A stretch of DNA of 64,000 nucleotides from Bacilli bacterium (GCA_017470115.1 JAFUEZ010000003.1:173064-237063); one strand, 5' to 3'; positions 1,132 to 25,009 are shown, numbered from the stretch's first letter. The notes: generated by a model not told the origin, from the letters alone. Program-made: numbers and translations.

Positions 1132-3096
1132 ATGGCAGCTTTAATCAAAGATTATTATAACGATTCGATTTCAAAATTCTTAAGCACATCTTCGGAAACA
1201 ATTTTTGGCGAACTCTTAGTAAAAGATTCTTTTGCTACTGAAGCTACGCAAAAAGATGCTTGGAAATGTGAAATAGAAATACTTAAAGAACAGCTTAAAG
1301 ATATATCTGATGGTTCTATTATTTTCGAATATACTATTCCAAGAATAGGAGACAGAATCGATGTAGCTTTGCTAATCAAAGGTGTTATCTTTGTTCTGGA
1401 ATTTAAAGTTCATAAGAAAACATATGAAATGGCAGACGAAGAGCAAGCAGAAGATTATGCCCTTGATTTGAAATATTTCCATGAGGCTAGTGAACATAGA
1501 TATATAGTTCCCGTTTTAGTAGCAACTGATGCGAAAACCGTTAATTTCAGTGGTGGAATAGCGGAAGATCGTGTTTTTGATTCGCTTCGTTATAATGCCG
1601 TTTCTATTGGAGCACTTATCAAACACGTTTTGTCAATTGTTAGTGATTCGGACATTAATAGAGATGCTTGGATAAAATCGCCATACAGACCAACACCAAC
1701 AATCATTGAAGCGGCTAAAGCTTTATATCAGCATCATGACGTTAAAGAGATTTCAAGAAGCGAAGCAGGTGCTGAGAATTTAGAGAAAACTAACGGCGCT
1801 ATTACATACGTAATTGATAAATGTAAGAGTGAGCACAAAAAAGCTATTTGTTTTATTACCGGTGTTCCTGGTGCAGGTAAAACTCTTGCTGGTTTAAATA
1901 TTGCAAACACAAGACATGATTTTGATAATGATGAACACGCTATCTTTCTTTCTGGTAACGGCCCATTAGTGGAAGTCCTCCAAGAAGCTCTCGCTAGAGA
2001 TGCAGTTGTTCATCAAGGTATCAAGAAGGGTATAGCTAAAGTCGGAACTAAATCATTTATTCAGATTGTTCACCATTTCAGAGACGAATCATTAGATCCA
2101 GACAATGTTCCACATGATAAGATAGCTATTTTTGATGAAGCTCAAAGAGCGTGGGACGAGTCTCAACTCTCTAACTTCATGCAAAGAAAGAAGAATCAAC
2201 CAGGTTATCACATGAGTGAACCTCATTCTTTAATTGAATATATGAACCGTCATAAAGACTGGGCAACGATTGTGTGCCTTGTCGGTGGTGGGCAAGAAAT
2301 CAATACTGGAGAAGGTGGATTAAAAGACTGGTTTGAAGCAATAAGAACCTATTTCCCTGATTGGGAAGTATATATATCTAATAAGATTACAGATTATGAA
2401 TATGTTCGTGATTCATCCATTGATGAGCTTTTAGGTGGACACCCATATAACGTTATCCCTGAGCTTCATTTGAGTGTCAACATGCGTTCCTTTAGAAGTG
2501 AAAAATTATCTGACTTTGTAAAAGCAATTATCGATAATAGGCCTGAAGATGCAAAAAGAATCTATTTAGAAATAAAAGATAAATATCCTGTTGCGATCAC
2601 CAGAGATCTCAATGTTGCTAAGAATTGGGTTAGGACAAAGTCTAGAGGCACAGAAAGATATGGTTTAATGGCATCATCAGCCGCCGAAAGACTAAGAGCC
2701 AAAGGAATATGGGCTTCTAACGAAATTAAGCCAACCAAATGGTTTTTAGATGGCAAAGATGAAGTTGATTCGTCATATCAATTAGAAGTGACTGCTACAG
2801 AGTTTGCAGTACAGGGACTAGAAATTGATTATGGCATTGTCGCTTGGGATGGAGATTTTAGACATAATGGCAACGAATTTGAATATAAACGTTTCACCAG
2901 AAACATGTGGTGCAATGTTAATTCGGACATTAGAAAGCAATACTTAAAGAATGCATACCGTGTATTGCTAACAAGATCTAGACAAGGGTTTGTTATATTT
3001 GTTCCTGAAGGAAGCGATATAGATCCATCAACAAGTCCTAAGATTTATGACAAGACTTTTGAATATTTAAAGAGTATTGGACTAGAAGTTATATAA
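1132..3096 (+). CDS. DUF2075-type protein: N-terminal PD-(D/E)xK nuclease-like domain fused to a P-loop SF1-like helicase/ATPase
   Basis: GDRIDVALLIKGVIFVLEFK (D...ExK nuclease signature), Walker A GVPGAGKT, Walker B/DEAQ box IAIFDEAQRAW; 654 aa, the typical DUF2075 architecture. Confidence 0.6.
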   Translation: MAALIKDYYNDSISKFLSTSSETIFGELLVKDSFATEATQKDAWKCEIEILKEQLKDISDGSIIFEYTIPRIGDRIDVALLIKGVIFVLEFKVHKKTYEMADEEQAEDYALDLKYFHEASEHRYIVPVLVATDAKTVNFSGGIAEDRVFDSLRYNAVSIGALIKHVLSIVSDSDINRDAWIKSPYRPTPTIIEAAKALYQHHDVKEISRSEAGAENLEKTNGAITYVIDKCKSEHKKAICFITGVPGAGKTLAGLNIANTRHDFDNDEHAIFLSGNGPLVEVLQEALARDAVVHQGIKKGIAKVGTKSFIQIVHHFRDESLDPDNVPHDKIAIFDEAQRAWDESQLSNFMQRKKNQPGYHMSEPHSLIEYMNRHKDWATIVCLVGGGQEINTGEGGLKDWFEAIRTYFPDWEVYISNKITDYEYVRDSSIDELLGGHPYNVIPELHLSVNMRSFRSEKLSDFVKAIIDNRPEDAKRIYLEIKDKYPVAITRDLNVAKNWVRTKSRGTERYGLMASSAAERLRAKGIWASNEIKPTKWFLDGKDEVDSSYQLEVTATEFAVQGLEIDYGIVAWDGDFRHNGNEFEYKRFTRNMWCNVNSDIRKQYLKNAYRVLLTRSRQGFVIFVPEGSDIDPSTSPKIYDKTFEYLKSIGLEVI

Positions 3097-3376: not shown

Positions 3377-3599
3377 GAGGCCTTGAATACTACATTGGGA
3401 TTGTCGCGTTTTTGATAGTCGGTAATACTATATATAGTATTAATCAAACAAACACATTCCCTGATACGTTACATTGCGAGATTGTCGTTCGCTTAATTCT
3501 TCGAAATAGCGGTCTAAACTGAAATAATTTTAAAAAAAATCAAAAAAATGCAGATAAACCTGTCATTTCGTGGTATATTAGTGTTGTGAGGTGATTTAC

Positions 3600-4868
3600 A
3601 TGCGTAAAAAATTATATCCAAGAGAATTGTATCTAAAGAAAATCAGACCTTTTTATCATGAAAACGATTTAATCAAAGTTATTACCGGTGTTAGAAGATG
3701 TGGAAAATCATCTCTGATGCAGTTAATCGCGAAAGAGTTAATCAAAAGCGGCGTAGATGAGAACAACATTGTTTATTTGAATCTTGATAAAAGGCCGTAT
3801 AGAAGAGTTAAAAAAGCTGACCAACTTGAAGATATTCTTGCAAGCAAACTTGATCCCATTAAAGGAGATAAATACCTATTCATTGACGAAATACAAAATG
3901 TAAAAGATTTCGAAGAAGTGATTAATGCTTTTAGAGAAGATGATAATTGTTCCATTTTTATAACTGGAAGCAATGCTTATTTGTTATCTGGAGAATTAGC
4001 CACAAAATTAACTGGTCGATATTTAGAATTCAATGTTGGCACATTATCTTTTTTTGAATATATTGAAATGAAGAAATTCTTCAAAAAGCCAATCGATAAT
4101 GACTTAGAAATCGAACTTAACAACTATATATTAGAAGGCGGTTTTCCACTTGCGGTAAAATACGACACCATTCTTGACAAGCGCAATTACGTAAAAAGCA
4201 TTATTGATGAAATATATAAGAAGGACGTTAAAAAGAATAAAAAGATTAAAAACAGACACTTATTCAACCAAATTCAAACATATATCATTAACAACTTTGG
4301 TGCCACAACTTCAGTTATTTCACTTTGCGATTATTTAGAACAGGTCAATGGGAAAAGACCAAGCAATAACACTGTCTATTCATATTTAAAGATACTTGAA
4401 GATGTAAAAATTATATCTTGCTGTCATCGTTTTGACATGAAGAGCAAAACATCGCTTAACGGAGAAGAAAAATATTATCTTTCAGATTTAAGCTTCTATT
4501 TTGTAGATCAAACTGATAATAGAATCAACTACGGTCCAGTTCTTGAAAACATCGTTTATAACTATTTACTTTCTAACGATTATTCTTCTTCTATCGGGAG
4601 AATCGGAAAATTAGAAGTTGATTTTATTGCTAGAGATGAAACCACTCTTGATTATGCGTACATTCAAGTCGCAATGCGTATCTTTAATGATATATATGAT
4701 GAGAATGGAAAATTAATCACTGAAGAAAGAGAATACGCACCGTTAGAAAGAATTACCGACGGGTATCCGAGATATTTATTAACGCTCGACAAACTTTTAC
4801 AAAAGAGAAGTGGTGTCAAGCACGTGAACCTTATTAACTTCATGCTCAAAAACGAAAAATTTATATAG
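3600..4868 (+). CDS. AAA+ ATPase of the COG1373 family (AAA_14 + DUF4143 domains)
   Basis: N-terminal P-loop ITGVRRCGKSSLMQ, Walker B LFIDEIQNV, length ~420 aa; true ATG at 3600 after RBS GTGAGGTGA (the track ORF starts at a GTG at 3591). Confidence 0.75.
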   Translation: MRKKLYPRELYLKKIRPFYHENDLIKVITGVRRCGKSSLMQLIAKELIKSGVDENNIVYLNLDKRPYRRVKKADQLEDILASKLDPIKGDKYLFIDEIQNVKDFEEVINAFREDDNCSIFITGSNAYLLSGELATKLTGRYLEFNVGTLSFFEYIEMKKFFKKPIDNDLEIELNNYILEGGFPLAVKYDTILDKRNYVKSIIDEIYKKDVKKNKKIKNRHLFNQIQTYIINNFGATTSVISLCDYLEQVNGKRPSNNTVYSYLKILEDVKIISCCHRFDMKSKTSLNGEEKYYLSDLSFYFVDQTDNRINYGPVLENIVYNYLLSNDYSSSIGRIGKLEVDFIARDETTLDYAYIQVAMRIFNDIYDENGKLITEEREYAPLERITDGYPRYLLTLDKLLQKRSGVKHVNLINFMLKNEKFI

Positions 4869-5063: not shown

Positions 5064-5201
5064 AGAATACATCGATATATTTTTAGTGTAAAAATGGCTC
5101 AAATTTTCCATAGGGTTGAAATTGACACATATCTTTTTTTTGATACCATTGTCGCTGGAAACATATGTTTATAACCTTTGTAGGCGAGAATATAACAAAA
5201 A

Positions 5202-5285
5202 TTGGTGCAAAACCATTAAAAAGTCACTCGGAATTTGGTGCAAAACTATTAAAAAGTCACTCGGAATTTGGTGCAAATTGTATTT
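5202..5285. repeat. Tandem direct repeat of a 30-bp unit (2 full copies + 1 partial) ~50 bp upstream of ATPase gene 2
   Basis: ttggtgcaaaaccattaaaaagtcactcggaa / tttggtgcaaaactattaaaaagtcactcggaa / tttggtgcaaattg read directly from the sequence; the track ORFs 5116..5301 and the 5' extension of 5165..6685 are translations of this repeat. Confidence 0.8.
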
Positions 5286-5332
5286 ACTGCTCTTCATTTA
5301 AGTATTATACTATTTTCGAGGAGACTGCATTT

Positions 5333-6685
5333 ATGGATACAATATATTTTAGAAGAAAAATAGATAAAAGATTATCAGAATGGTTTGAAAGCAAGGACCA
5401 TTCACCAGCATTAGTTTATGGAATAAGGCAATGTGGGAAGAGCAAAAGCATAGAACAATTTGCAAAATCTCATTTTAAAAATGTAAATTCTATAGATTTT
5501 TGGAAGACACCAAACGCCAAGATAGCATTTGAAGAATCTCTTGAAGTAGACGCAATAACAAAATCTTTAACTGGTTTATTTCCTTCTTTTAAATTCGTGC
5601 CTCACGAAACAGTTTTGATATTAGATGAAATTCAAGATTGTCCTAAAGCAAGGCTGGCGTTAAAAAGTTTTAAAAAAGATGGAAGGTATGAAATTATCGC
5701 TAGTGGATCATATATTGGATTAAATATTGACAGCAGCAGTGTTCCAAAACCAAATGGCTCTGAAGATTTTCTTGAAATGAAAACAATGGATTTTGAAGAA
5801 TTTTTATGGGCGATGGGATATGACGATGCTTTTATAAATGATTTATTAAAACACTTTAAAAACAAAACAGAAGTTCCTAAGGCTATTCATCTAAAAATGA
5901 AACAGCTATTCAATGAATATGTTTGTGTTGGAGGATATCCAGAGGCACTAATGAAGTTCATTAATTCAAATAGTTACTCTGAAGCATTTAAAAAAGTAAA
6001 GAGTCTTATTATTGACATAAAAGGTGACCCCGCAAAAAGGAAAAACGAAAAGGAAGAATTTGAATATACTGCAACAGAGATTGCCAGAATTCAAAAGGCG
6101 TTTGATTTAATAGCGGCGTTTGTTGTTAAAGATAACCAAAGATTTATCACTTCTAAAATAAGTGGCAACAGTTATCAGAGAAGCGATGCGGTTAATTATT
6201 TATTAAATTCTTCTGTTGCATATAAAGCGTTTAATGTGGAAGTTCCGTCATTACCTTTGGCGGTTAGAAAAATTGATGCTGAATTTAAATTATTTTACGC
6301 CGATATAGGAATAATGATAAATGAACTTGGTTTTGATGTTATTAAAGGGATTTTACAAAACGGATTAAGTCTAGGGATGAACAAAGGATACTTATATGAA
6401 GCTGTTGTTGCAGATTCGCTTTACAAAGCTAATGTTCCTCTATTCTATTTTGGAAAAGAAAGTGGCCTTGAGGTTGATTTAGTTATTTCTTATAACGGAG
6501 ATGCGACATTAATAGAAGCAAAATCAACAACAGGTAATACTAAATCAAGCAAACAAATAATGAAAAACCCAGATCATTATGGAAAAACTAAATTAATAAA
6601 AATCGGTGATTACAACATTTCAGAAACTGGAGATATAACAACAATTCCACATTACTTAACATTTGTATTAGGAAAAGAATTATAG
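5333..6685 (+). CDS. Second COG1373-family AAA+ ATPase (AAA_14 + DUF4143), a divergent paralog of 3600..4868
   Basis: P-loop VYGIRQCGKSKSIEQF, Walker B LILDEIQDCP; start moved to the ATG at 5333 (MDTIYFRRK...) because the 5' part of the track ORF is the translated tandem repeat. Confidence 0.7.
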   Translation: MDTIYFRRKIDKRLSEWFESKDHSPALVYGIRQCGKSKSIEQFAKSHFKNVNSIDFWKTPNAKIAFEESLEVDAITKSLTGLFPSFKFVPHETVLILDEIQDCPKARLALKSFKKDGRYEIIASGSYIGLNIDSSSVPKPNGSEDFLEMKTMDFEEFLWAMGYDDAFINDLLKHFKNKTEVPKAIHLKMKQLFNEYVCVGGYPEALMKFINSNSYSEAFKKVKSLIIDIKGDPAKRKNEKEEFEYTATEIARIQKAFDLIAAFVVKDNQRFITSKISGNSYQRSDAVNYLLNSSVAYKAFNVEVPSLPLAVRKIDAEFKLFYADIGIMINELGFDVIKGILQNGLSLGMNKGYLYEAVVADSLYKANVPLFYFGKESGLEVDLVISYNGDATLIEAKSTTGNTKSSKQIMKNPDHYGKTKLIKIGDYNISETGDITTIPHYLTFVLGKEL

Positions 6686-6727
6686 TGTTGTCACTGGCGA
6701 ATTGCTAAACCATACTAGTTAGTTTTT

Positions 6728-6830
6728 GTATAACTAAAAAGATAAGCAATAATTTGTGACAATCCTTAAAAGGTAAGCAATTTGGCAGTTACAACCATCT
6801 AAAAGGTAATCGATAAACTTGCACACAGCA
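6728..6830. repeat. Three imperfect ~33-bp direct repeats between ATPase gene 2 and R2 copy 2
   Basis: ctaaaaagataagcaataatttgtgacaatcc / ttaaaaggtaagcaatttggcagttacaacc / ctaaaaggtaatcgataaacttgcacac. Confidence 0.5.
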
Positions 6831-6832
6831 CC

Positions 6833-6927
6833 ATATATTAGAGAATATGTTAGAAGTTTATTACTTAGCAATAAGTTTTCGAAATCATTATTAAATTTAA
6901 ATGAAAAATAGCGAAAAAATAGTGAAA
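6833..6927. repeat. R2 repeat copy 2
   Basis: Near-identical to 4968..5063. Confidence 0.8.
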
Positions 6928-7033
6928 TTATAATGAAAACATAACTATGATTTAAAAATGTCCAAAACATTGTTTAGTAGCCTATAATTTGGCTTTGTTT
7001 TCACAATTATGGACAACATTTTTCACTTTGTAT

Positions 7034-7226
7034 TAGGGAATACATTTTTATTTTTCTTTATTCTTTTTATAAGGAAGAAGTAGTAAAAATCTTAATAGAT
7101 AAGATAATCCAATTGATAAAATTAGCATTGCTAGTAGCATCAATATGACATTAAATACGCCATATGTTTTATAGTCAAAAATTGGATAAAGGAAGCGAAT
7201 ATATCCTGATTCTTGAAATGGTGCAA
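7034..7226. repeat. R1 repeat copy 2 (3'-end fragment of gene 24323..25009)
   Basis: tagggaatacattttt...ttctttttataaggaagaagtagtaaaaatcttaatagataagataatcc...ctgattcttgaaatggtgcaac. Confidence 0.85.
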
Positions 7227-7414
7227 CCCGTGCCGTATAGTCTTATTGTTTTTAGCCGGTTTTAACCAATTTCCTAATAGATTTATCTATTAGAAGAAAA
7301 CCATTAAACAGCACAAATGAACAAAAAAGTGCCGTTTTTATGTTAAAATGGTAAAATTATAAAAAAAGTACCAAAGTATTGCAAAAATGTAATATTATGG
7401 TTATATTATTATAT

Positions 7415-8149
7415 ATGAAACAGTTACCTAAGCTATTTTCTTTTAATGAATTAAAAGATACCTACAAGACGGCGTCTGATTTTTCTGTGTTTGTTTATCG
7501 TGCAATAAAAAGAGGAGATATAAAGAAAGTTAAAAGAGGCCTATATGCATTAGTTAATCCGTCGACTGGAATGATCTTTGTTACTAAATTCCAAATAGCC
7601 AGTCATTTATTTGATGATGCTTATTTCTCTTATCATGACGCTCTTGAATATTACGGCTTAGCAAATCAGTCATTCGTTTCTATATTTACTTATTTAACTA
7701 AGTCACATGCTCGTGATTTAGAATTCGAAGATGTTACATATAAAGCTAAGAAATCCAATAGCGATTTATTCATACGCGATAGAATGAAAGAAGAAGGGAT
7801 ACGTGTAGTATCTTTAGAGCGTGCTATCATAGATTCAATAGACTGTTTATCTTTGGCGGGCGGCTTAGAAGAAGTGGAATACGCTCTTGATTACTGCCCT
7901 AAACTAAACCTTAAAGATGTACAGTTACTCCTAAAAGCCTATGATAAGAACCTTTTATACCAGAAGGTTGGCTATTTATTCGAGAAACACTTTGGTAATG
8001 ACATACCTGAAGAATTTTATAAAGTGTGTTTAAAACATTCAGGAAATACAGTGATGTATCTAGAATGCAATCCTGGTGAAGGTAAATTAAACGCTAAATG
8101 GAAACTAATGATAAAAGAGGAAGGATACCTACCTAATGAACTATTCTGA
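7415..8149 (+). CDS. AbiEi/AbiGi-like protein (putative antitoxin/transcriptional regulator partner of the AbiEii nucleotidyltransferase)
   Basis: Paralog of 22589..23323 (shared KRG.YALVNPSTG.IF.TKFQIASHLFDDAYFSYH, SLERAI.DSID); lies directly upstream of and overlaps an AbiEii-type nucleotidyltransferase gene; start set at the ATG at 7415 by alignment with the paralog (track ORF starts at TTG 7379). Confidence 0.5.
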   Translation: MKQLPKLFSFNELKDTYKTASDFSVFVYRAIKRGDIKKVKRGLYALVNPSTGMIFVTKFQIASHLFDDAYFSYHDALEYYGLANQSFVSIFTYLTKSHARDLEFEDVTYKAKKSNSDLFIRDRMKEEGIRVVSLERAIIDSIDCLSLAGGLEEVEYALDYCPKLNLKDVQLLLKAYDKNLLYQKVGYLFEKHFGNDIPEEFYKVCLKHSGNTVMYLECNPGEGKLNAKWKLMIKEEGYLPNELF

Positions 8150-9078
8150 AGACTACATTTCTAATTTTGGAAAACAAACTGGATTTATCAATGCTAATAT
8201 TGAAAAAGTTATTAGGCTTTTAGATATCCTTGCTTTTATCGATTCTAATTTAGATCCATATCATGAAAAGCTTGTCTTAAAGGGCGGCACTGCGATTAAT
8301 TTAATAATTACAAACCTCGCTCGTTTAAGCGTTGATATCGATTTAGATTATATCGGTAGCCTTGATAAAGAGAAGATGAGCGTTGATAGAGACGCTATTA
8401 TGTCAGCTCTAGATAACTTTATGTTAAAAGAGGGTTACGCCGTCTCACTAGAAAAATCTAGAAGTAGTGTTATCTTAGCAAGCAGAAATTATTCTTATAC
8501 AAACGATTTTGGCAATAGAGATAACATCAAGGTTGAAATTAATTTTATTGATAGAATTCATGTTTGCCCAAGCACCAAAAAGAAAGTTAAGTATTTCGAG
8601 AAAGAACTAATGGTGCATACTCCTTTTAGAAGCTGAGCTTTTTGGAATGAAAATTGCCGCTCTTATTGATAGACATAAACCAAGAGATTTGTTTGATATT
8701 TATAAACTAAAAGGATACATGCCTTATCTAGATAAGGATAGAGTTAGAAAACTTGCGGTATTCTATTTATCATTAGATGGCATTTTTGAGCTCAACGAAG
8801 CTAATTTTGATAATGTTAATAAAATTACACAAGACTCAATAAAAAAAGAATTACGGCCGGTCCTTGCTAAAGGAAACATGTTTGATTTAAATATCGCAAA
8901 AGAAGAAGTCATTAAATTCTTGAAGGATTTGCTCGTACTCACAGATAACGAAAAGAAATATCTAATAGAATTCTCAAATGGAAACTTTGACCCATATCTT
9001 TTATTTGAACCAAATGACGCAGAAAGTGCCACTAAACATCCAATGGCTAAGTGGAGAGCGGCTAATTTAAAGAGGTAG
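8136..9078 (+). pseudogene. AbiEii/AbiGii-family nucleotidyltransferase (DUF1814-like) disrupted by a frameshift near 8620-8640 (track ORFs 8136..8636 and 8647..9078)
   Basis: N-terminal NTase motifs LKGGTAINL and RLSVDIDLDY; colinear with the intact paralog 23310..24248, but the frame changes at ...MVHTPF|RS* and the +1 frame continues LLEAELFGMKIAALIDRHKPRDLF. Confidence 0.7.
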
Positions 9079-9082
9079 CCAC

Positions 9083-10426
9083 ATGGACATGAAACAAGTG
9101 GAAGGGTTTTATTATTATCAAGACGAAAAACACGCCACTGTTTTAATCGTGGATTATCTGAAACATTATGTTCAAAAGATAATGAATTGCCCTCCTGGAG
9201 AATGCATGAATGATGAAGCCATGGAGTATATTTCGGTTAATACAGCAACCATCATGCTTGAAGGTTTTAGTAGAAAGTTTTTCGTGATTCAAGAAATTAA
9301 TTATGGGAACGAGGAGCCTAGCGAAGAACAAAAAAGAAAATTTCATGTATTCGATGAGTTCAATAAACGCTATACAAAACATTTGAAATACATCAAAGAA
9401 GAAGCAAGACTCTATCAGATTTTAAATGAGAAGCGATTCACATATACCGAAATTAACGATAGACATATAGAATCGCTACATAAAGTTGATCCTACTCTAA
9501 TCCATAGTTTTTTGAGTACATTAATTCCTGATGATTTGCCAGAAAAAGAAAGGACTGTGGCTTTGGCTAATATCATGAAAAACAGAGATAAAAATGGCTT
9601 TGATGATTTAATGAAAGAGCTTCATAAAGATAAAGCCTATGAAGAATCTAATGAATTATCTAAAAAAATACAGCCAGCATTCATGGAGTTTCTTAAAGCT
9701 TTTGTTGATGTTGAACTTCTCATGGCCAAAGAATATTCCCTTTATACCGACAAATATAAGAAAAAGATGGATGAATATGCTGATAAAGGTTTATTCCTTT
9801 ACTGTCTAAATACTCCAGATTTGCCAATAGATGCCGAAGATATCACAATGGATGACATCTATAATTATTTTTTGAATGATGATGCAATGTTCCTTCAGGG
9901 AATGTTTGAAGTATTCATCAAGCATGGCGATGTTGGTGGTGAAATTAATAAAAGAGAAGCAGATGATATTGTTGCATCTTATAACCTATTAATTGAAGGA
10001 AAATATTGGGCCTCGCTTAGAAACCTTTATGCTTTAATTGATCATCACCATAAATTGTGCGCAGGTATATTTAATGGCTATGAAGAAGCTAAGAAAGAAT
10101 TTAAAAACGGCAAGGAAAGGTCTGAATACATTTGTAAATTATTCACTGATACCAAGGTTTATTATTACGAGGCTGTTTGGCATAAACTAGATGCCGCGAT
10201 TGAAGAAATGAATAAGGGTTGTGGAGACAGATTTGTTTCTAGAAACGCTATTATTCATGGTGATTATGAAAAACCTGATGTTAATCCGCAAGCCAAAGAT
10301 GTAATTAATGTTTTTATGATTTACATAACAATGAGAATGATTATTGATAGATTAACTAATATCGAGGAGATCATTAAGGAATCAAATATTTATTATTTAA
10401 GTTATAAGACAAAAGGATGGCTTTGA
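9083..10426 (+). CDS. Hypothetical 447-aa, predicted all-alpha protein with no recognisable motif; start overlaps the end of the AbiEii pseudogene
   Basis: Long intact ORF with RBS AAGAGG; its stop is followed by a hairpin that sequesters the RBS of the next gene. Confidence 0.55.
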   Translation: MDMKQVEGFYYYQDEKHATVLIVDYLKHYVQKIMNCPPGECMNDEAMEYISVNTATIMLEGFSRKFFVIQEINYGNEEPSEEQKRKFHVFDEFNKRYTKHLKYIKEEARLYQILNEKRFTYTEINDRHIESLHKVDPTLIHSFLSTLIPDDLPEKERTVALANIMKNRDKNGFDDLMKELHKDKAYEESNELSKKIQPAFMEFLKAFVDVELLMAKEYSLYTDKYKKKMDEYADKGLFLYCLNTPDLPIDAEDITMDDIYNYFLNDDAMFLQGMFEVFIKHGDVGGEINKREADDIVASYNLLIEGKYWASLRNLYALIDHHHKLCAGIFNGYEEAKKEFKNGKERSEYICKLFTDTKVYYYEAVWHKLDAAIEEMNKGCGDRFVSRNAIIHGDYEKPDVNPQAKDVINVFMIYITMRMIIDRLTNIEEIIKESNIYYLSYKTKGWL

Positions 10427-10442
10427 TATATAATAAATATTA

Positions 10443-10485
10443 GCAACTCCGTTAGTAAGACAACGGTCTGAGGACCGGAGGTTGC
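10443..10485 (+). promoter_or_regulatory. Stem-loop (gcaactccg ... cggaggttgc) that pairs the Shine-Dalgarno GGAGGT of the downstream HTH gene
   Basis: 9-10 bp complementary arms read directly from the sequence; ATG of the downstream gene at 10490. Confidence 0.4.
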
Positions 10486-10489
10486 TAAA

Positions 10490-10708
10490 ATGGATTCGAG
10501 CAAAAGAAGAATCGACAAAGAACTAGCTTCGTTTATCCGCATGTGCTATCGACATTCCTGTAAAACTCAGGAAGAATTAGCATTTGCGATAGATGTCGAA
10601 CCTAGAACCTTGAAATATTACTTCAGTGGTGAAAGGAAGCCTAGTCAAAAAACGTTATTGAAGCTACTCAAAGTTGCAAATATTAACGGTAAGGATATCC
10701 CTTTTTAG
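10490..10708 (+). CDS. Small helix-turn-helix (XRE-like) DNA-binding protein, 72 aa
   Basis: RBS GGAGGT; QEELAFAIDVEPRTLKYYFSGERKPSQKTLLKL resembles an HTH_XRE helix-turn-helix. Confidence 0.5.
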   Translation: MDSSKRRIDKELASFIRMCYRHSCKTQEELAFAIDVEPRTLKYYFSGERKPSQKTLLKLLKVANINGKDIPF

Positions 10709-10795
10709 GGGTATTTTTATTATTTTATGAACCACTTGGCTCATTGTGGATATTTTCTTTGGTTAATAACATTAATACGAAAGGAGGTACTCAAA

Positions 10796-11107
10796 ATGTC
10801 AAAATACAATACCATTGATGTTTGGAACAAGGTGTTTGGCTCCGCTCAAGAAGTCAGAGATTACACTGGCAGGCTAATGAAAAAGTCAGCCTGTGGAAAT
10901 ACTAGAAGCCAATATCATCCAACATTAGATCACATTAGGCCATTATCAAAAGGTGGCTCAGATGTACTAGACAATATTATAGTTTGCCATCGTGATACCA
11001 ACGAAGAAAAAGCCGATGCATTCCCACACTGGACAGCAAACGGCAAAAGATATCATGCGGTCAGAGTCAAAGGCTCTAGAGTGGCATACGACATTATTGA
11101 AGACTAG
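10796..11107 (+). CDS. HNH endonuclease, ~103 aa
   Basis: RBS AAGGAGGT 8 nt upstream of the ATG at 10796; HPTLDHIRPLSKGGSDVLDNIIVCHRDTNEEK = H-N-H motif with Cys/His ligands. Confidence 0.65.
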   Translation: MSKYNTIDVWNKVFGSAQEVRDYTGRLMKKSACGNTRSQYHPTLDHIRPLSKGGSDVLDNIIVCHRDTNEEKADAFPHWTANGKRYHAVRVKGSRVAYDIIED

Positions 11108-11116
11108 GTGACTGAT

Positions 11117-11260
11117 ATGGGACCTAAATGGTGCATGAATTACGATTCCGGCGAATACGAATGGATTGATGAAAACGGATTTAGTTGGGATCAAGGCGAA
11201 TACGTCTATAATTGGGATCGTAGCGTATACGATGACGATGATGAAGACGATGACTGGTAA
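11117..11260 (+). CDS. Small acidic 47-aa ORF (MGPKWCMNYDSGEYEWIDENGFSWDQGEYVYNWDRSVYDDDDEDDDW); speculative
   Basis: ATG 10 nt after the HNH stop; W/D/E-rich; too short for the ORF track. Confidence 0.2.
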   Translation: MGPKWCMNYDSGEYEWIDENGFSWDQGEYVYNWDRSVYDDDDEDDDW

Positions 11261-11795
11261 CTAGCGTAGGCTTCCTTTCTGCCTCATCCTTATACATAGT
11301 TCTCACCGCTATTCTCCTAGCGTATGGTGGGAACTTTTTTGTTCAATAAAACCGCATTTCTTACAAAAAATAAATGATTTGTGAGCTTTTTCACTAAATA
11401 TCGACAACTTTATAACTAATAGTGGCTTTCTTTTTAGGATTCTTAGCGGTGATGGTATTGGAGTAGATTGGCTATAATTCCGCTATCTCTTTTCTACATT
11501 CTCTAAGTTTCTCAAGTTTAACCGTATTAGTGCCATCGATGACTACCGCAATATGCGTTATATCGACTGCAATCATACGGTCCACGAAGACATCTAGCAT
11601 CTATTTGGTAATCATGTCATAGTGGCTTTTTTGCGCCTAGAATCTTAAGCATCTGGTCAAGCCTATTCTTTATCGCTTCCTTTGCATTGAATTCTTAAAT
11701 GACATGTTTGGTGTTGGAAATATTGTTCACTGGTGTATATCGCTTATTGAAGAAAAGGTCTTTTTAAGGTTAGAATTAAAAAGAGGTAATTAGAA

Positions 11796-11987
11796 ATGAC
11801 TAAGAAATGTACTCATTGTGGATCTACAAAATTAAGAATAAGAGATTATTCTTTTACTGATACTGCTGACAATTCCTTTCCTATCGATATTTATGTATGT
11901 GAGGAATGTGGGCATATTGAATTATTTGAAAATAACTCAAATTCCTTTAATCCATATTCTACTGGAGATGGAAAAATCGCATATTAG
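11796..11987 (+). CDS. Small zinc-ribbon protein (CxxC...CxxC), 63 aa
   Basis: RBS AAGAGGT; CTHCGS...CEECGH four-Cys motif; followed by an intrinsic terminator. Confidence 0.5.
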   Translation: MTKKCTHCGSTKLRIRDYSFTDTADNSFPIDIYVCEECGHIELFENNSNSFNPYSTGDGKIAY

Positions 11988-11991
11988 TTAA

Positions 11992-12026
11992 ATTGGGCCT
12001 TGTTGAAATATACAAGGCCCTTTTTA
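11992..12026 (+). terminator. Rho-independent terminator
   Basis: gggccttgt-tgaaatat-acaaggccc hairpin followed by TTTTT. Confidence 0.7.
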
Positions 12027-12092
12027 AGTATCTGATTTTCTTAATTTATTATTTTTTCATTTTTAAGAAGATATATTTTTTTGGAAAATTAT

Positions 12093-12131
12093 TTTTCTTT
12101 ATTCTTTTTATAAGATAGAAGTAGTAAAAAG
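12093..12131. repeat. Partial (~38 bp) R1-like fragment (tttttctttattctttttataagatagaagtagtaaaaag)
   Basis: Matches the stop-codon-proximal part of the R1 repeat only; marks the boundary between the Abi cassette and the lipoprotein/GH3 cassette. Confidence 0.6.
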
Positions 12132-12195
12132 CCTGCAAAACAGACATATTTTTGAATAATATGAGATATTTGCAGGTTTAAATAATTAATCTTTT

Positions 12196-13269
12196 TTATT
12201 TAACTTTTAATACAATCGAAGGAGCAACACCTCCGTTGTCTTTATATGCATTATCGTAAAAATAAGTATATCCATGACTTGAATTTCTTCCAGCATGTTC
12301 GTTTGAATTTGGATAAGCTGAGCGTTGCCACCGAATACCCATTCCATAAAAGTAGTCATCCCTTGGCCAAATGTCATTTCCGTTTGCTTTAGATAAATCA
12401 GAACAATATAGTTGTCTTTCTGCATCACCATATTTTCCTACCTTATCAAAACCATATTCTTCTTTATGACATTCTTCATATGACAAAATAAAGACTTTAT
12501 CAGTTAAATCCTGGCATGTTGTAACTGTGTCTTTATCTCTTCCAGCAGCTTTGGTTGTACTTTTATCGTTTTTATATGTTGTATCTTCAATTAATGCTCT
12601 TTGAGTATCACTAAAAGCGGCATTATAGAAGAAGTTGTTGCAATAAACACGTAAATCGCTATATTCATAATTATTCGCATATGTTCCTTCTGGAACACCA
12701 GGTTTAGTCATTAAAAACGTACTCGAATCGTAGTTTTCTTGTTTTGTGAAAGCATAAGAGTCAACAATTCTATCTGTTAAGAGCAAATAATCACCATCAT
12801 TACCGTCTTTATTAAAATCTTTAGATAGAATTCTCCATTTTAAAGGAAGAACTTGAAAATAATACTCAGTATTGGTTATCAATTCTTGGCCATCTTGAAA
12901 ATTATATTTGTTGTTATTATAAGTATGTGATTTTACTTTTGCGTAATAATAGCCATCGCTTCCTTTAAAACAAGTAAACGCATCTTCATCGCCATTCTTG
13001 ATTACTTTAGAATCTGTTTCATCGATTGTAACATTTTCTTTTTTAACAGTTTGTGGATATTCCCCGAAATAAACATAATCACCTTTTATTTCAAATGGCT
13101 TATCGTTGCTTAATTTTGTTGATAACAAATCTGTATCATCGTATTTTTTGTTTGGATCGATTTCATCAGTTTCTGCCGGAGTAGGCTTTTCTTCTTCGTT
13201 TTGTGATTCTCCACATGAAACTAAACTAACGACACTTAAAATTGCAAAAAGTGGCAAAAATTTTTTCAT
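12196..13269 (-). CDS. Lipoprotein of unknown function
   Basis: Signal peptide + lipobox MKKFLPLFAILSVVSLVSCG; start set at the internal ATG (13269) preceded by GGAGGAAACT. Confidence 0.6.
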   Translation of the reverse strand: MKKFLPLFAILSVVSLVSCGESQNEEEKPTPAETDEIDPNKKYDDTDLLSTKLSNDKPFEIKGDYVYFGEYPQTVKKENVTIDETDSKVIKNGDEDAFTCFKGSDGYYYAKVKSHTYNNNKYNFQDGQELITNTEYYFQVLPLKWRILSKDFNKDGNDGDYLLLTDRIVDSYAFTKQENYDSSTFLMTKPGVPEGTYANNYEYSDLRVYCNNFFYNAAFSDTQRALIEDTTYKNDKSTTKAAGRDKDTVTTCQDLTDKVFILSYEECHKEEYGFDKVGKYGDAERQLYCSDLSKANGNDIWPRDDYFYGMGIRWQRSAYPNSNEHAGRNSSHGYTYFYDNAYKDNGGVAPSIVLKVK

Positions 13270-13430
13270 AAGTTTCCTCCATATTTTCTTGATTTTGAAA
13301 AGTTCTATTAAAATTTTACGATTTATATCTATCGATGATTTGTTTTTGGCACACATAACATATTTACGATACTTATTGACAAGTTTTTTCAATGAATTTA
13401 ATTTTTATAAAAATTAAATATTGTTATAAT

Positions 13431-14141
13431 ATGTATATGTTAAAAATATCCATAGTTGAGGATAGCGATAAGGATTTCGAGATTATCAAAAGTCATGTAG
13501 AGAATTTTTTCAATCGACAAAATGAAGTTGTGATTGATCGTTTTGAAAATGCAGAATTGTTTTTATCTGTCTTTTCTAAAAATTACAACATTTGCTTTTT
13601 TGATATTGAATTACCTGGGATTAATGGTTTAGATTTAGCTAGAAAAATCAGAGAAATTGATGAGAATGTCCCTATAATTTTTATTACAAATATGGCTCAA
13701 TTTGCTATTCAAGGCTATGAAGTGAATGCGCTTGACTACATTATAAAACCATTAAAATATGGGGATTTTGAAATGAAAATGAAAAAAGTAGACAAGTTTT
13801 TGAAACAACAAGAAAGTACTCAAGTTGCCATTCAAACTCGAGATGGAGTTCAAATTTTTAAAGAAGAAGATATCTATTTTGTTGAAGTGTATAAACATTA
13901 TTTAAATTTTCATACAAAGCGTGGAGAAATTACATCTCGAGGCACAATGAAAAACGCAGAACAGATTTTGCCTAAAAATTTCGCACGTTCAGGAATTAGT
14001 TTTTTAATTAATATTCGTTGGATTGATAAAGTAACTCCAAATTCAGTAATTGTTAATGGAGTCGAATTACCTCTTACAAGACTTTATAAAAATGATTTTT
14101 TAAAGAAAGTTTCACAATTTGTGAGTGGAAACGTTAAATAA
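13431..14141 (+). CDS. LytTR-family response regulator (AgrA/ComE-like)
   Basis: REC domain (IVEDSD...FFDIELPGINGLDL...IIFIT) and C-terminal LytTR-type DNA-binding domain; start among ATGs at 13392/13431/13437 is uncertain. Confidence 0.7.
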   Translation: MYMLKISIVEDSDKDFEIIKSHVENFFNRQNEVVIDRFENAELFLSVFSKNYNICFFDIELPGINGLDLARKIREIDENVPIIFITNMAQFAIQGYEVNALDYIIKPLKYGDFEMKMKKVDKFLKQQESTQVAIQTRDGVQIFKEEDIYFVEVYKHYLNFHTKRGEITSRGTMKNAEQILPKNFARSGISFLINIRWIDKVTPNSVIVNGVELPLTRLYKNDFLKKVSQFVSGNVK

Positions 14142-15514
14142 TGAATTTTGATAAAATCTTATATACATTCTCTTATAACTATTTTCTTTTCGCGATAATG
14201 TTCGCTGAAATTTTACTTTTTGTTGTCCTTTTTGCTTCAAAACTTAAAAAGAAAAAATATTTTGCTTTGCGTTTTATCTTATCAGTAATTGTGATTTTAT
14301 TTTTAATAGCCGCATTAACGTTTATCAATTCGTTTATCGTTCAAACTAATGAAATTAAAGGCAACCAAGAATATGTTTTTAGTTCTCGTTTTGTCATAAC
14401 AACTTTAATATGGTTACTCTGTTGTGGATTTGTTGAATTATGCTACGAAACGACATCTTTAATTTCTTTATTTGTAGCAGTTGCTTCAGCAAATGGTAGA
14501 AGTATTGCTTATTGTTTGTTTTCGATTCTTTTGAGTTCATTTAAAATTTCGATTGAGATTTTTCCACAAGATTTCCTTGATTATCGAGTGATCATTTCTT
14601 TTGTTGCGTTTTTTTCGGTAACGTGGATGGTTTTATATTTCTTCTTTCAAAAGAAAATTGGAGAATTAATTCAAAAATATGAAGACAAAATTATCTTAAT
14701 TTTATTTGCTCTTTCCATTATTACAAATTATTTTGGATTAAATGCCACAATTATTTACATCCAAAGAGACTTGTTTGTATTTATCGCTTTGCTACTTGTT
14801 TTTACTTCGATTTCAGTTATTGCTTTTGTTGTTCAATATGTTCAACTTCAAAAAATCGAATTAGCTTTTGAAAAGCATGAAGCAGAAATGTTCTTAGCGA
14901 AAGAAGAGAAGATGTATCATTTTCAGAAAAATGTTGTTGATATGTTGAATGTTAAAGCTCATGACATTAAACATCTGATTCATGATATTGAAAATACTGG
15001 AAAGTTAGATAAAGAAACGATTGAAGAATTAACGACAACCACCGACCTTTATGAATCAATGGCAAAGACAGACAATGAGCCTCTTAATGTTATTTTGACA
15101 GAAAAATGGATTTATTGTAAAAAACACAGAATCACATTTACACCTGTTATTGATCCAAATAGTTTGGTATTTATGAAAGCGAATGAAGTCTATTCATTAA
15201 TTGGAAATATTCTAGATAACGCTATCGAAGCAAGTTTAAAATGCCCTGTAGAAAATAGAGCAATCTCATTAAGTATTACAACAAAAAAAGGAATGCAAAT
15301 TGTTGAAGCAAGCAACAACTATGTAGGAAAAGTTGTTATAAAAGGCGGAATTCCAAAAACAACAAAAGAAGATAAAGAAAATCATGGCTTTGGGATAAAA
15401 TCTATCAAAGTTATCGCAAATAAATACGATGGTGCATATGATTTTTCTACTTCAAACAATGTTTTTACAACAAGAATCATTTTTACAAATATTGCAGAAA
15501 ATATAGAAAAATAA
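14141..15514 (+). CDS. Membrane GHKL-type sensor histidine kinase (AgrC/ComD-like), ~6 TM helices + HATPase
   Basis: Multi-TM N-terminus, catalytic motifs NILDNAIEAS and GFGIKSIKVIANKY; start overlaps the regulator's stop (TAATG). Confidence 0.7.
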   Translation: MNFDKILYTFSYNYFLFAIMFAEILLFVVLFASKLKKKKYFALRFILSVIVILFLIAALTFINSFIVQTNEIKGNQEYVFSSRFVITTLIWLLCCGFVELCYETTSLISLFVAVASANGRSIAYCLFSILLSSFKISIEIFPQDFLDYRVIISFVAFFSVTWMVLYFFFQKKIGELIQKYEDKIILILFALSIITNYFGLNATIIYIQRDLFVFIALLLVFTSISVIAFVVQYVQLQKIELAFEKHEAEMFLAKEEKMYHFQKNVVDMLNVKAHDIKHLIHDIENTGKLDKETIEELTTTTDLYESMAKTDNEPLNVILTEKWIYCKKHRITFTPVIDPNSLVFMKANEVYSLIGNILDNAIEASLKCPVENRAISLSITTKKGMQIVEASNNYVGKVVIKGGIPKTTKEDKENHGFGIKSIKVIANKYDGAYDFSTSNNVFTTRIIFTNIAENIEK

Positions 15515-22402: not shown

Positions 22403-22588
22403 CCCGTACCGTGTATACTTATTGTTTATAGTCTATTTTAGGGACTCCTTTTATAGGTTTTACTTATAAAAATGAGAGAACTATTGAGCTGATTTGCTTA
22501 AAAAATACCTGATTTTCAGCCAAATATAAAATATACCAACTTACAAGTAAAACTTTACATATGTGTTTAGTTGTGCTTAAATTATGGT

Positions 22589-23323
22589 ATGAAAACTCTA
22601 CCAATAATCTTTAAATATGAAGATATAAAGGAATTTTATCCAAATGTAGCAACCTTTTATGCTTTTGTTGATCGCGCTTCAAAGCGTGGAGAGCTTAAAC
22701 AAATAAAAAGAGGAATATATGCACTAGTAAATCCATCTACAGGAAATATCTTTGCAACTAAATTTCAAATAGCAAGCCATCTATTTGATGACGCTTATTT
22801 TTCATATCATGAGGCTCTAGAATACTATGGTTTAGCTACTCAATCTTTTGTTTCTTATTTCACTTATCTAACGCATGTATATGTTGATGATGTGGTTTTT
22901 GAAGACGTAATATATCATTCAAAAAAGAGTGGATATGATTTAGAAATACTTAACCGTATAAAAGAAGAGGATATTCGTGTTGTTTCTTTAGAACGCGCAA
23001 TAGTGGATTCTATAGATTCTCCTTCTCTAGCGGGTGGTCTTGAAGAAATAGAATACGCTCTTAGTAATTGTCGTAGACTTAATATAGATAAGATTGAGAT
23101 GCTATTAAAGCATTATGATAAAACATTCTTATATCAGAAAATCGGATACTTATTTGAAAAACACTTTGGCGAAGAAATACCGGAATCGTTTTATAAATTA
23201 TGTTTATCTAAGATAGGTAATAAGATCAATTATTTTGAATCTAAGGTTGGCCACTCTAAGTTAATACTTAAGTGGAAATTAATGGTGCCATCAGAAAGGA
23301 GCATGCCTGATGAATTATTCTAG
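22589..23323 (+). CDS. AbiEi/AbiGi-like protein (intact copy)
   Basis: Paralog of 7415..8149; overlaps the downstream AbiEii gene by 14 nt (operon). Confidence 0.5.
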   Translation: MKTLPIIFKYEDIKEFYPNVATFYAFVDRASKRGELKQIKRGIYALVNPSTGNIFATKFQIASHLFDDAYFSYHEALEYYGLATQSFVSYFTYLTHVYVDDVVFEDVIYHSKKSGYDLEILNRIKEEDIRVVSLERAIVDSIDSPSLAGGLEEIEYALSNCRRLNIDKIEMLLKHYDKTFLYQKIGYLFEKHFGEEIPESFYKLCLSKIGNKINYFESKVGHSKLILKWKLMVPSERSMPDELF

Positions 23324-24322: not shown

Positions 24323-25009
24323 TCATTTTTCTTTATTCTTTTTATATGGAAGAAGTAGTAAAAATCTTAATAAATATGCTAATCCAATTGATAAAATTAG
24401 CATTGCTAGTAGCATCAATATGACATTAAATACGCCATATGTTTTATAGTCAAAAATTGGATAAGGGAAGCGGATATATCCTGATTCTTTAAATGGTGCA
24501 ACATCTCCTAAAATAAGTGATCTAATAATAATGAATATACTATAAATAAATGGATATATGGTTGTTTCTAAAGGAGCATATTTTGTTATTTTTTCTTTAT
24601 TAGAAAATAAAAAGAAATCTAATGAAAATAAAAGTGGAGAAGCAAGATGCAATATCCAAACTTGAATACGCGCCCAAAAGGCAGGAGTAAAGATATTTTG
24701 ATTAGGAGTAAAAACATTAAAGAAGATTGCAGTTATTGCTAAATATATAAAAGTCATGAAACTTAAATTAACAAATCTCTCTTCTTTTTTATTAGTTATT
24801 TTATTTTTAATATCTGTTATTGATGAATAGATTAAAAGTAGAGCTACAATAACAGCAAATATATTTGTTTGATTTGTAAAGAAAACATAAAACTCATTAT
24901 GAATATCTGGAAACCAACCAATCCAACTAGCTAAAATACCAGCAGTTGTAATAGATACATAAACTATCCTATAAATTAAATGAAAGATTCTGTTTTGTAA
25001 AATATTCAT
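24323..25009 (-). CDS. Multi-pass membrane protein (possibly Pr6Pr/FAR-17a-like); its 3' end is the source of the R1 repeats
   Basis: 228 aa, ~6 hydrophobic helices; 3'-terminal ~190 bp (24311..24508) duplicated at 3185, 7034 and 22230. Confidence 0.6.
   Translation of the reverse strand: MNILQNRIFHLIYRIVYVSITTAGILASWIGWFPDIHNEFYVFFTNQTNIFAVIVALLLIYSSITDIKNKITNKKEERFVNLSFMTFIYLAITAIFFNVFTPNQNIFTPAFWARIQVWILHLASPLLFSLDFFLFSNKEKITKYAPLETTIYPFIYSIFIIIRSLILGDVAPFKESGYIRFPYPIFDYKTYGVFNVILMLLAMLILSIGLAYLLRFLLLLPYKKNKEK

Follow-up and report, generated by a model that had tools for sequence, protein, structure and literature searches.

The DNA considered here is a 64,000-nt stretch of the metagenome-assembled genome of an uncultured gut or rumen Bacilli bacterium (GCA_017470115.1 JAFUEZ010000003.1:173064-237063; hereafter the window), with a G+C content of about 31%, and it contains a conserved cassette of approximately 4 kb (~7357-11340) which probably combines three separable units, namely an AbiE pair whose toxin gene is broken, a candidate HEPN-type abortive infection (Abi) gene with a leader-gated regulator, and a unit built around a minimal HNH nuclease. 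The central gene encodes a 447-aa protein (9083-10426; MBQ9265747.1) of an unannotated family, and the C-terminal 165 residues of this protein very probably form a HEPN domain, judging from an invariant motif and the predicted fold. The cassette comprises AbiEi, AbiEii, the 447-aa gene, a leader, a helix-turn-helix (HTH) gene, the HNH gene and an acidic open reading frame (ORF), all on the plus strand, and in BLASTN comparisons it is collinear (78% nucleotide identity) with L009 and L010, the closest of the related loci from other genomes used for comparison (L001-L046), in which the 447-aa protein is 91% identical; outside ~7357-11340 the flanks of the window and of these two loci are unrelated on both sides. 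An earlier note on this DNA had described a compact defence-type cassette, which fits its position in an island with a PLD/DpnI_C nuclease, an SLFN-type helicase and two AAA_14/DUF4143 ATPases; the most novel gene of the cassette is that of the 447-aa protein. The note had also treated 9083-11107 as a single operon, and this cannot be maintained, as a -10 box, terminator-like sites and a palindrome split the genes into at least three units. HEPN Abi effectors, defence hotspots and leaders sequestering a Shine-Dalgarno (SD) sequence are known kinds of element; the 447-aa family, the RNA motif and the layout of a variable gene (X) followed by leader, HTH gene and HNH gene were unmatched in the libraries of hidden Markov models (HMMs), Rfam or the literature searched.

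The 447-aa protein gave no matches in the four HMM libraries scanned (Pfam, PADLOC, NCBIfam and PHROGs), and its family is rare: a word-indexed search of 5.8 billion proteins recovered 33 clusters at 90% identity (35-91% identical), and 83 matches to the family profile were found among 1.84 billion representatives, including shorter relatives of ~330-375 aa without the first ~85 residues. The 33 homologues span 365-466 aa (all are 441-466 aa except one 365-aa entry), and none has a Pfam domain. There was no match in the plasmid collection, and an alignment-based scan of IMG/VR gave no locus with the long form. The AlphaFold2 (AF2) model made from the family alignment has a mean predicted local distance difference test score (pLDDT) of 89.7 and contains a beta-sheet domain (residues 6-73) and, after it, long helices; the protein is thus not all-alpha as was first thought. 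The predicted layout is an N-terminal beta domain (1-80), a helical middle region with an invariant G-x-F-L-Y-x3-T-P-D-x-P loop, and a predicted HEPN domain at residues 283-447 (9929-10423), which means that the earlier statement that the protein has no recognisable domain holds for the HMM libraries but probably not for the fold of the C-terminus.

HEPN ribonucleases carry the signature R-x4-6-H, with a polar residue following the arginine (PMC13043305), and this is what is found in R387-N-A-I-I-H392-G of the 447-aa protein (R387 at 10241-10243, H392 at 10256-10258). R387, H392 and G393 are invariant in 64 sequences, some of them only 15-30% identical, within the context S-R-N-A-I-x-H-G-D-Y. 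When the C-terminal 165 residues were modelled alone with AF2 the pLDDT was 95.1, with helices at 5-22, 26-46, 61-96 and 122-161 and the motif at 105-110, placed after the third helical element and ahead of the long last helix. Foldseek searches of the PDB with this domain model gave only three structures which superpose well (rmsd, root-mean-square deviation, 4.1-5.4 Å; target TM-score 0.50-0.59), namely 2hsb, labelled as a HEPN-domain protein in the Foldseek output, and 1wwp and 2q00, which we take to be HEPN proteins as well. In a Pfam scan of 32 domain sequences, HEPN families were the most recurrent matches, in up to 7/32 members and apparently all sub-threshold: HEPN_RiboL-PSP in four (best 1.7e-4), HEPN_Apea in two (8e-3) and HEPN_MAE_28990 in one (1.3e-3), the last below its gathering score and covering the C-terminal, motif-bearing half of the model. 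Finally, hhalign against an alignment of HepT (DUF86) placed RNAIIHGDY on RNGLVHE-Y (E = 6e-4, probability 28.5%, 21 columns). The assignment as HEPN domain is made because the motif, domain model, Foldseek, Pfam and hhalign all agree, though none of these is significant alone. A short-form relative of 346 aa is encoded downstream of tail genes on an IMG/VR viral contig (L045, 6001-7041), and has the HEPN-like C-terminus without the N-terminal beta domain.

Lactococcal Abi proteins with HEPN domains include AbiD/F, AbiJ, AbiU2 and AbiV, and neither with these nor with HepS, the solo HEPN protein of prophage Gifsy-1, does the 447-aa protein give a significant sequence match; it is also larger than the solo HEPN Abi proteins, and differs from these by its N-terminal beta domain and invariant NTPDLP loop. 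HepS is an anticodon nuclease which is triggered by a phage tail protein (PMC13043305), and the 447-aa protein resembles it in being a single protein with a C-terminal R-x4-6-H HEPN domain next to non-catalytic, sensing regions, encoded amid accessory and defence genes of mobile elements, with phage-triggered RNA cleavage and cell arrest as the expected mode of action (PMC13043305). HepS does not have the leader-HTH(-HNH) arrangement, and its authors report no co-occurring partner genes (PMC13043305). With the HepT/MNT systems the similarity lies in the R-N-x3-H-x(1-2)-Y stretch, which aligns with RNxxxHxY of HepT over ~21 columns at a probability of 28%, whereas the 447-aa gene has no MNT nucleotidyltransferase partner. 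By analogy with solo HEPN defence proteins such as HepS (PMC13043305), the 447-aa protein would be made constitutively, in the window from the AbiE operon via a ribosome binding site (RBS) in the 3' end of AbiEii, would dimerise through its HEPN domains, and would be kept inactive by the N-terminal and middle domains; sensing of a phage product by these domains would then lead to cutting of cellular RNA (tRNA, mRNA or rRNA), upon which translation would stop and the infection would be aborted. Both the ribonuclease activity and the triggering by phage are what we infer from this analogy. If the 447-aa protein is a phage-triggered HEPN ribonuclease, it represents a new sensor-effector family for abortive-infection immunity, one which is missed by every defence-annotation library tested and comes from poorly studied uncultured gut or rumen Bacilli.

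The genomic context of the 447-aa family was compared in 13 distinct loci. Downstream of the gene the window has a promoter-like site (AAGACA-17-TATAAT, 10406-10434) which spans the 447-aa stop codon, followed by a leader hairpin (10440-10488), the outer stem of which (10440-10451 with 10476-10488) is predicted to bury the SD sequence GGAGG (10477-10481). The 3' arm of this stem, CGGAGGUUGCUAA, holds the GGAGG 8 nt before the HTH start codon in the RNAalifold prediction, and an inner hairpin AGAC-AACG-GTCT (AGACAACGGTCT, 10458-10469) corresponds to the RNAalifold consensus AGAC-AAYG-GUCU. Downstream of the 447-aa gene the intergenic DNA has been conserved across 12 distinct loci, including those with proteins of only ~42% identity, and a covariance model of the leader gives one match (53-81 bits) in each locus with a small ORF after the 447-aa gene, and none elsewhere in the window, in L017 (which has no small downstream ORF) or in HNH loci without the 447-aa gene. 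In the model-fitted alignment, which leans towards structure, 92.7% of cells are paired versus 36-50% with slid partners, and 8 of 15 pairs show changes on both sides versus one or two in the controls, values which were reached by none of 500 shuffles. The RBS-occluding hairpin reported previously is therefore well supported by covariation over these 12 loci. The arm opposite the SD sequence pairs largely via U.G (10/12 and 7/12 sequences at two positions), and as U.G pairs are tolerated by RNA but not by a DNA palindrome, the outer stem is read as an RNA structure. No match was found in Rfam for 7000-12500 on both strands, at E-values up to 1, and the core pattern of the leader was absent from IMG/VR. 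This conserved SD-hiding leader is a candidate new cis-regulatory RNA.

Two points speak against reading all of the leader conservation as RNA. The arms of the hairpin also form an inverted repeat in the DNA, and part of the conservation may reflect a DNA operator rather than RNA; this applies especially to the inner part, since its motif AGACAAC recurs as its reverse complement, GTTGTCT, in the leader found with DUF4238 genes. That second type of SD-hiding leader (AAACCTTyGGAGCACTGCGTTGTCTATGCAAAGGAGGTTTGC) lies before the HTH gene in the DUF4238 loci (L027, 5610-5690; L046, 2530-2590).

The leader is followed by the gene for a 72-aa XRE-family HTH protein (10490-10708; Pfam HTH_3, 4.3e-9), and 12 of the 13 loci have a small HTH gene, belonging to one of three types, in this position, L017 having none. 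Most loci have the 72-aa type (43-69% identity), and the 447-aa gene keeps its leader also in loci where a 67-aa type (L005, L020, L021) or a hybrid 80-aa one (L014) stands in for it. The distance from stop codon to stem varies between loci, at roughly 8-30 nt in hand counts, and most of the 11 related hairpin-bearing loci have a TATAAT-like box, 6-10 nt before the hairpin. Coupling by a ribosome which terminates at the 447-aa stop codon and melts the hairpin was considered and rejected, as the distance is not constant and a -10 box intervenes; for the same reasons the preferred reading of the hairpin is as the 5' leader of an HTH mRNA with a promoter of its own. In the proposed arrangement the promoter overlapping the 447-aa stop codon would drive the HTH gene, with the leader hairpin hiding the SD sequence and holding expression of the regulator low and tunable. 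In the window, the ORFs of the 447-aa and HTH proteins share a frame, with only two TGA codons between them (10424 and 10469). The shared frame is taken to be a coincidence, as genetic code 11 suits the long ORFs of the window and the stop codons at this position are TAA or TAG in other loci (TAA TAA in L001).

A terminator-like hairpin with T-run (10688-10721) lies where the HTH gene ends, and this hairpin (ATCCCTTTTTAGGGAT) plus T-run is kept in eight loci. It is followed at 10729-10742 by a conserved palindrome, GAACCAnnTGGYTC (GAACCACTTGGCTC in the window), upstream of the HNH promoter. This palindrome occurs exactly once in each locus with the 72-aa HTH type, always between the HTH and HNH genes, is absent from loci without this HTH type, and its count in the window was reached by none of 100 shuffles. 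It is the best candidate for the operator of the HTH protein, which would make the latter a probable regulator of the HNH promoter; the DNA target of the HTH protein is here what we infer from conservation. The HNH gene itself (10796-11107, 103 aa) has an SD sequence GGAGG at 10783-10787 and a conserved promoter-like box. Its start is almost certainly ATG 10796, since the homologues are overwhelmingly 103-105 aa (a minority is called longer) and 10727-10795, the 69 nt that had been counted as part of the ORF, holds the conserved tail of the terminator and the palindrome. The small genes listed in the earlier note (HTH, HNH, 47-aa ORF and CxxC ORF) are all present, the HNH protein being shorter than the 126 aa of the extended ORF. 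It matches Pfam HNH_4 with 27.5 bits (3e-6; cut-off 22) and HNH with 26 bits (cut-off 21.4), and has the DH...N...H/N pattern, with H46, N60, H65 and N69 invariant in 22 diverse members. As proposed, the third unit would run from the terminator through the palindrome and promoter to the 103-aa nuclease, sometimes an acidic peptide, and a second terminator.

The features of the controller (C) proteins of restriction-modification systems used for comparison here are established knowledge. As in those systems, an XRE HTH protein (70-80 aa) is encoded upstream of a nuclease gene with a palindrome before the nuclease promoter; unlike those systems, the ORFs of 5165-12030 include no methyltransferase domain, the HTH and nuclease genes have a terminator between them, and the 103-aa HNH protein has no recognisable DNA-recognition domain. 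The palindrome GAACCAnnTGGYTC presumably also differs from the known C-boxes.

In size and conservation the HNH family far exceeds the 447-aa family: it comprises at least 499 clusters at 90% identity (among the 120 listed, identity to the query is 69-93%), and in TBLASTN comparisons it is 71-84% identical in loci where the 447-aa protein is 42-58% and the HTH protein 43-64% identical. It was also found in several settings, contrary to the idea that it is specific to this cassette. Besides the loci with the 447-aa gene, it follows two tyrosine integrases plus either AAA_21, RloB and AAA_15 genes (L026) or DUF4238 and HTH genes (L027); it lies 16-24 nt after a gene for a 266-267-aa radical S-adenosylmethionine (SAM) protein with Radical_SAM and Fer4_12 domains and a CNYSCKHC motif (L036, 6184-7315; L041, 6173-7312), which could be a viperin-like defence gene; and it is present at a prophage end, in the order XhlA - DUF4238 - HTH - HNH. 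The DUF4238-type loci have the same layout of -10 box, SD-hiding leader, HTH gene, terminator, GAACC..GGTTC palindrome and HNH gene, with a different leader sequence. In GenBank phages only remote matches to the HNH core were found, and IMG/VR contained one locus. A Septu-like arrangement is not present in the window, where no AAA_15/AAA_21 ATPase adjoins the HNH gene, and although an AAA_15 ATPase precedes it in L026, a terminator hairpin and -10 box intervene there. As for the co-occurrence of the 447-aa gene with HTH and HNH genes, for which a scan had been suggested, they accompany it in 12/13 and 11/13 loci respectively, and the HNH family also occurs without the 447-aa gene.

The near-identical integrative elements of L026 (1950-5984) and L027 (4198-5984) both consist of two tyrosine integrases, cargo, HNH gene, 55-aa ORF and genes for SAM synthetase, ArdA, DUF4314 and a DNA methylase. 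The integrases are 94.8% identical, and the right flank is 97.5% identical over 6.3 kb, beginning 16 nt before the HNH start codon, while the cargo in between has been swapped. Since the flanks are near-identical and the cargo differs, the HNH gene appears as the conserved edge of a defence-cargo hotspot in integrative elements, and we propose that the HNH unit would form the right-hand edge of such hotspots in integrative elements and prophages alike, with the 447-aa gene filling the slot that is held elsewhere by DUF4238, AbiL-like or radical-SAM defence genes. A single DUF4238 protein has been shown experimentally to be anti-phage (PMC9122126), and because DUF4238 is found in this position elsewhere, the 447-aa gene seems to occupy the slot of bona fide defence genes. 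In this the loci resemble the P2/P4 hotspots (Rousset et al. 2022), with near-identical flanks (integrases on one side, HNH gene and backbone on the other) around differing defence cargo, one such cargo being a DUF4238 gene, the kind shown to protect against T7 (PMC9122126). They differ in that the hosts are uncultured Firmicutes/Bacilli with another type of element, the edge is a tiny conserved HNH gene with its own regulator, and the rest of the element backbone is missing in the window. A mini-HNH gene and regulator marking a swappable defence-cargo slot could serve as a landmark for new Firmicutes defence genes, comparable to the use of the P2/P4 hotspots in E. coli.

The presence of the HNH gene in 11 of the 13 loci of the 447-aa family weighs against separable units, as it is also compatible with a true three-gene system. 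In such an integrated system, which we consider unlikely, the HEPN protein would be sensor or first effector and would alter the output of the HTH gene, for instance by cutting or unfolding the leader, and the HTH protein would control the HNH protein as a suicide DNase. The trio is found together in those 11 loci at 39-91% identity of the 447-aa protein and with different flanks, the leader stays with the 447-aa gene when the HTH becomes the 67-aa or 80-aa type, and the order X, leader, HTH, terminator, palindrome and HNH recurs with DUF4238 as X in two unrelated elements. Set against this, the HNH family is ~15 times larger than the 447-aa family, is missing from two of its lineages, and occurs without an HTH gene after AbiL/Septu-like ATPases or radical-SAM genes, with its own terminator and promoter, and the DUF4238 protein protects alone (PMC9122126). 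It is likewise distinctly doubtful that X - leader - HTH - palindrome - HNH represents a modular two-stage immune architecture sharing the 103-aa HNH protein as a suicide nuclease; X would then be the 447-aa HEPN-like protein, DUF4238 or possibly the viperin-like radical-SAM enzyme, and an X-specific, RBS-hiding leader would gate translation of the XRE regulator.

The same HTH gene and leader could also be viewed as part of a toxin-antitoxin (TA) pair in which the toxin gene comes first, as in higBA and mqsRA, with the HTH protein neutralising the HEPN ribonuclease or controlling its transcription and the leader setting the ratio of toxin to antitoxin. HEPN toxins are well known in TA systems, e.g. 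HepT/MNT. A small HTH gene of one of three types after the 447-aa gene in 12 of the 13 loci, with the same leader and with a -10 box within or beside the end of the toxin gene, is what such a pair would look like, and the HTH protein weakly resembles the HipB and MqsA antitoxins in NCBIfam. We nevertheless regard this as rather improbable: the 72-aa protein barely exceeds the HTH domain and leaves little room for a neutralising extension, three unrelated or distant HTH types interchange, which argues against a specific fit between the two proteins, the palindrome precedes the HNH gene and not the 447-aa gene, and the L017 lineage has no HTH gene.

The HEPN assignment has to be weighed against several points. 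None of the HEPN matches is significant, with Pfam scores below the gathering scores, hhalign probabilities of 7-28% over ~21 columns and Foldseek E-values of 1.1-3.5 for 2hsb, 1wwp and 2q00; whole-chain Foldseek searches of the PDB and BFVD gave non-specific helical matches, apart from small phage proteins; and four-helix bundles are common, while a short R-x4-H motif can be due to chance, although its invariance in 64 sequences argues against this. The 447-aa protein might instead belong to a mobile element as an accessory or regulatory factor, and R-N-x3-H would then have a structural or ligand-binding role. This would accommodate both the lack of significant HEPN matches and the fact that the most conserved loop of the protein, NTPDLP, falls outside the putative HEPN domain. 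We consider it very unlikely, as R, H and G are invariant in the 64 diverse sequences, the weak matches cluster on HEPN families and structures without scatter, and the context is consistently that of a defence island: the surroundings of the 447-family loci include GmrSD, SIR2/SLFN-helicase and Eco57I/MmeI-type methylase genes, HigB, HepT/MNT and further AbiE pairs. The small phage proteins from the BFVD search are several uncharacterised proteins of 73-101 aa (probability 0.90-1.00, target TM-score 0.47-0.61), including ones from Lactobacillus phages SAC12B and Bromius, and the region they match may be the N-terminal beta domain. Only noise (e.g. Rpn11, Hir3) came out of profile searches against PDB sequences.

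The first unit of the cassette is the AbiE pair, the existence of which is confirmed here. AbiE systems are defined as an AbiEi-family regulator gene overlapping that of a DUF1814 toxin with the motifs hGG/S, DhD, KLxAaxxR and +DxxD (PMC3985639). The AbiEi antitoxin/regulator gene (7415-8149, 244 aa; PADLOC AbiEi, 6.5e-58) has ATG 7415 as its probable start in an ORF opening with TTG at 7379; its match to Pfam AbiEi_4 is weak, and it is 76% identical to the corresponding region of L009, where a 244-aa gene is called. The two genes share 14 nt (AbiEii start at 8136, AbiEi stop at 8149), giving a bicistronic layout. AbiEii (8136-9078), a DUF1814 nucleotidyltransferase toxin, is a pseudogene as reported earlier, with a +1 frameshift in the T-run at 8624-8627: the pieces 8136-8636 and 8647-9078 cover positions 1-149 and 171-305 of the single 306-position PADLOC model PDLC02305 (8.7e-48 and 6.8e-34; Pfam AbiEii, 2e-14). 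In a DNA alignment, TTTT at 8624-8627 versus TTT in the intact 312-aa relative of L009 is the only frame-breaking difference, and deleting one T in silico gives a 313-aa ORF of the same length as intact members of its 90% cluster. Calling the pair decayed is hence an overstatement, and with both halves about equally conserved with respect to L009 (71% and 68% amino acid identity) the lesion appears to be recent. The repaired protein shows motifs I-IV as KGGT, DIDLD, MKIAALIDR and RDLFD, and the genes at 7415-9078 are in this respect true members of the AbiE type IV TA/Abi systems (PMC3985639), with an AbiEi gene overlapping that of a nucleotidyltransferase with all four motifs.

The AbiEii gene at 8136-9078 differs from those systems in lacking an intact reading frame, which is broken between motifs I and II (KGGT, DIDLD) on the one hand and III and IV (MKIAALIDR, RDLFD) on the other. 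The AbiEii protein of Streptococcus agalactiae loses its toxicity when motif III or IV is mutated (Dy et al. 2014, PMC3985639), and because the frame is broken before these motifs the copy in the window is probably inactive. The first unit would then be an AbiE type IV TA/Abi pair with its toxin inactivated by a one-base insertion. The truncated product is present in NCBI, Logan and ENA records, which argues against an assembler error, though these assemblies may share reads. An intact second AbiEi/AbiEii pair, 68% (toxin) and 63.5% (antitoxin) identical to the first, is located at 22571-24248, in agreement with the intact paralog noted before.

The 447-aa gene 3' of the toxin lies outside the described AbiE system. 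The sequence AAGAGG (9069-9074) is located inside the 3' end of AbiEii, with the stop codon at 9076-9078 and the ATG at 9083, an arrangement kept in L009 and L010; the translational coupling suggested previously is right about the AAGAGG but not about an overlap, there being a 4-nt gap. We consider it extremely improbable that the 447-aa protein serves AbiEii as an extension or dedicated partner, replacing or modulating the toxin: it does lie directly downstream and is probably translationally linked in these three loci, and AbiE genes are nearby in two further lineages, but the upstream gene is unrelated to AbiEii in most lineages, the intact pair at 22571-24248 is not followed by such a gene, and no AbiE gene was detected near the short-form relative on the viral contig. 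Over the 13 loci the upstream neighbour is either AbiEii, a Shedu-type SduA_C protein, a Gabija-like pair (OLD-TOPRIM plus UvrD) or an uncharacterised protein of 56, 185, 266, 347 or 462 aa. Since the neighbour varies in this way, the 447-aa protein does not appear to be an AbiEii appendage, and the independent role proposed for it, which the earlier note would have given up had the protein proved to be an extension or partner of AbiEii, survives.

On the right-hand side of the cassette, the HNH gene is followed by an ORF for a 47-aa acidic, aromatic-rich peptide (11117-11260), rich in D, E, W and Y and ending in DDDDEDDDW. Its exact sequence is found in a 189-member cluster at 90% identity, which points to a genuine, recurrent small protein; it accompanies the HNH protein optionally and could be a DNA mimic or nuclease inhibitor. 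A role as immunity protein for the HNH nuclease was rejected, as the ORF is interrupted by a stop codon in L010 and missing after the HNH gene in several loci, and it is thus not a general partner. A 16-nt inverted repeat (7318-7333 and 11330-11345) was considered as terminal repeats of the cassette and discarded, as the left arm is not kept in L010; the right arm appears by eye to be the tail of a terminator-like hairpin. Beyond 11340 there are gene relics, identified with TBLASTX and BLASTN searches against L010 and L014: a minus-strand fragment (11346-11618) matching a gene of L010 with 31% amino acid identity over 91 aa, and a plus-strand relic (11703-11781, 79 nt) with 77% nucleotide identity to the 3' end of a 448-aa gene of L014. 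The view of the region as a remnant of a mobile element holds in part only, in that the HNH gene is probably a hotspot edge and a mosaic of relics follows the acidic ORF. The 63-aa CxxC...CxxC zinc-ribbon ORF (11796-11987, plus strand) has its own RBS and a predicted terminator (11995-12020), but does not belong to the cassette as had been supposed: it lies outside the block conserved with the closest relatives, gives sub-threshold zinc-ribbon matches only, and is a singleton cluster in the protein collection.

The defence island in which the cassette lies covers the first 12 kb of the window. The other genes of this island encode a PLD-family nuclease with a DpnI_C (Dam-replacing HTH) domain (227-1057), an SLFN-group-3-type helicase (1132-3096) and two AAA_14/DUF4143 ATPases (3591-4868 and 5165-6685). 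Of the ATPases, the one at 5165-6685 was tested and matches the PADLOC candidate PDC-S01 at 1e-103. There is no integrase on the defence-island side within the window. The ORF at 5165-6685 opens with the repeated peptide GAKPLKSHSEF / GAKLLKSHSEF and matches the ATPase model only from residue 61; its true start is probably the Met at residue 57, with a short tandem repeat in the DNA upstream of it (5165-5340). Finally, genes for a LytTR response regulator and a GHKL histidine kinase are located at 13392-15514, with a weak AgrB-like match 9 kb further on (24323-25009), and together these could constitute a peptide quorum-sensing circuit adjoining the defence island.

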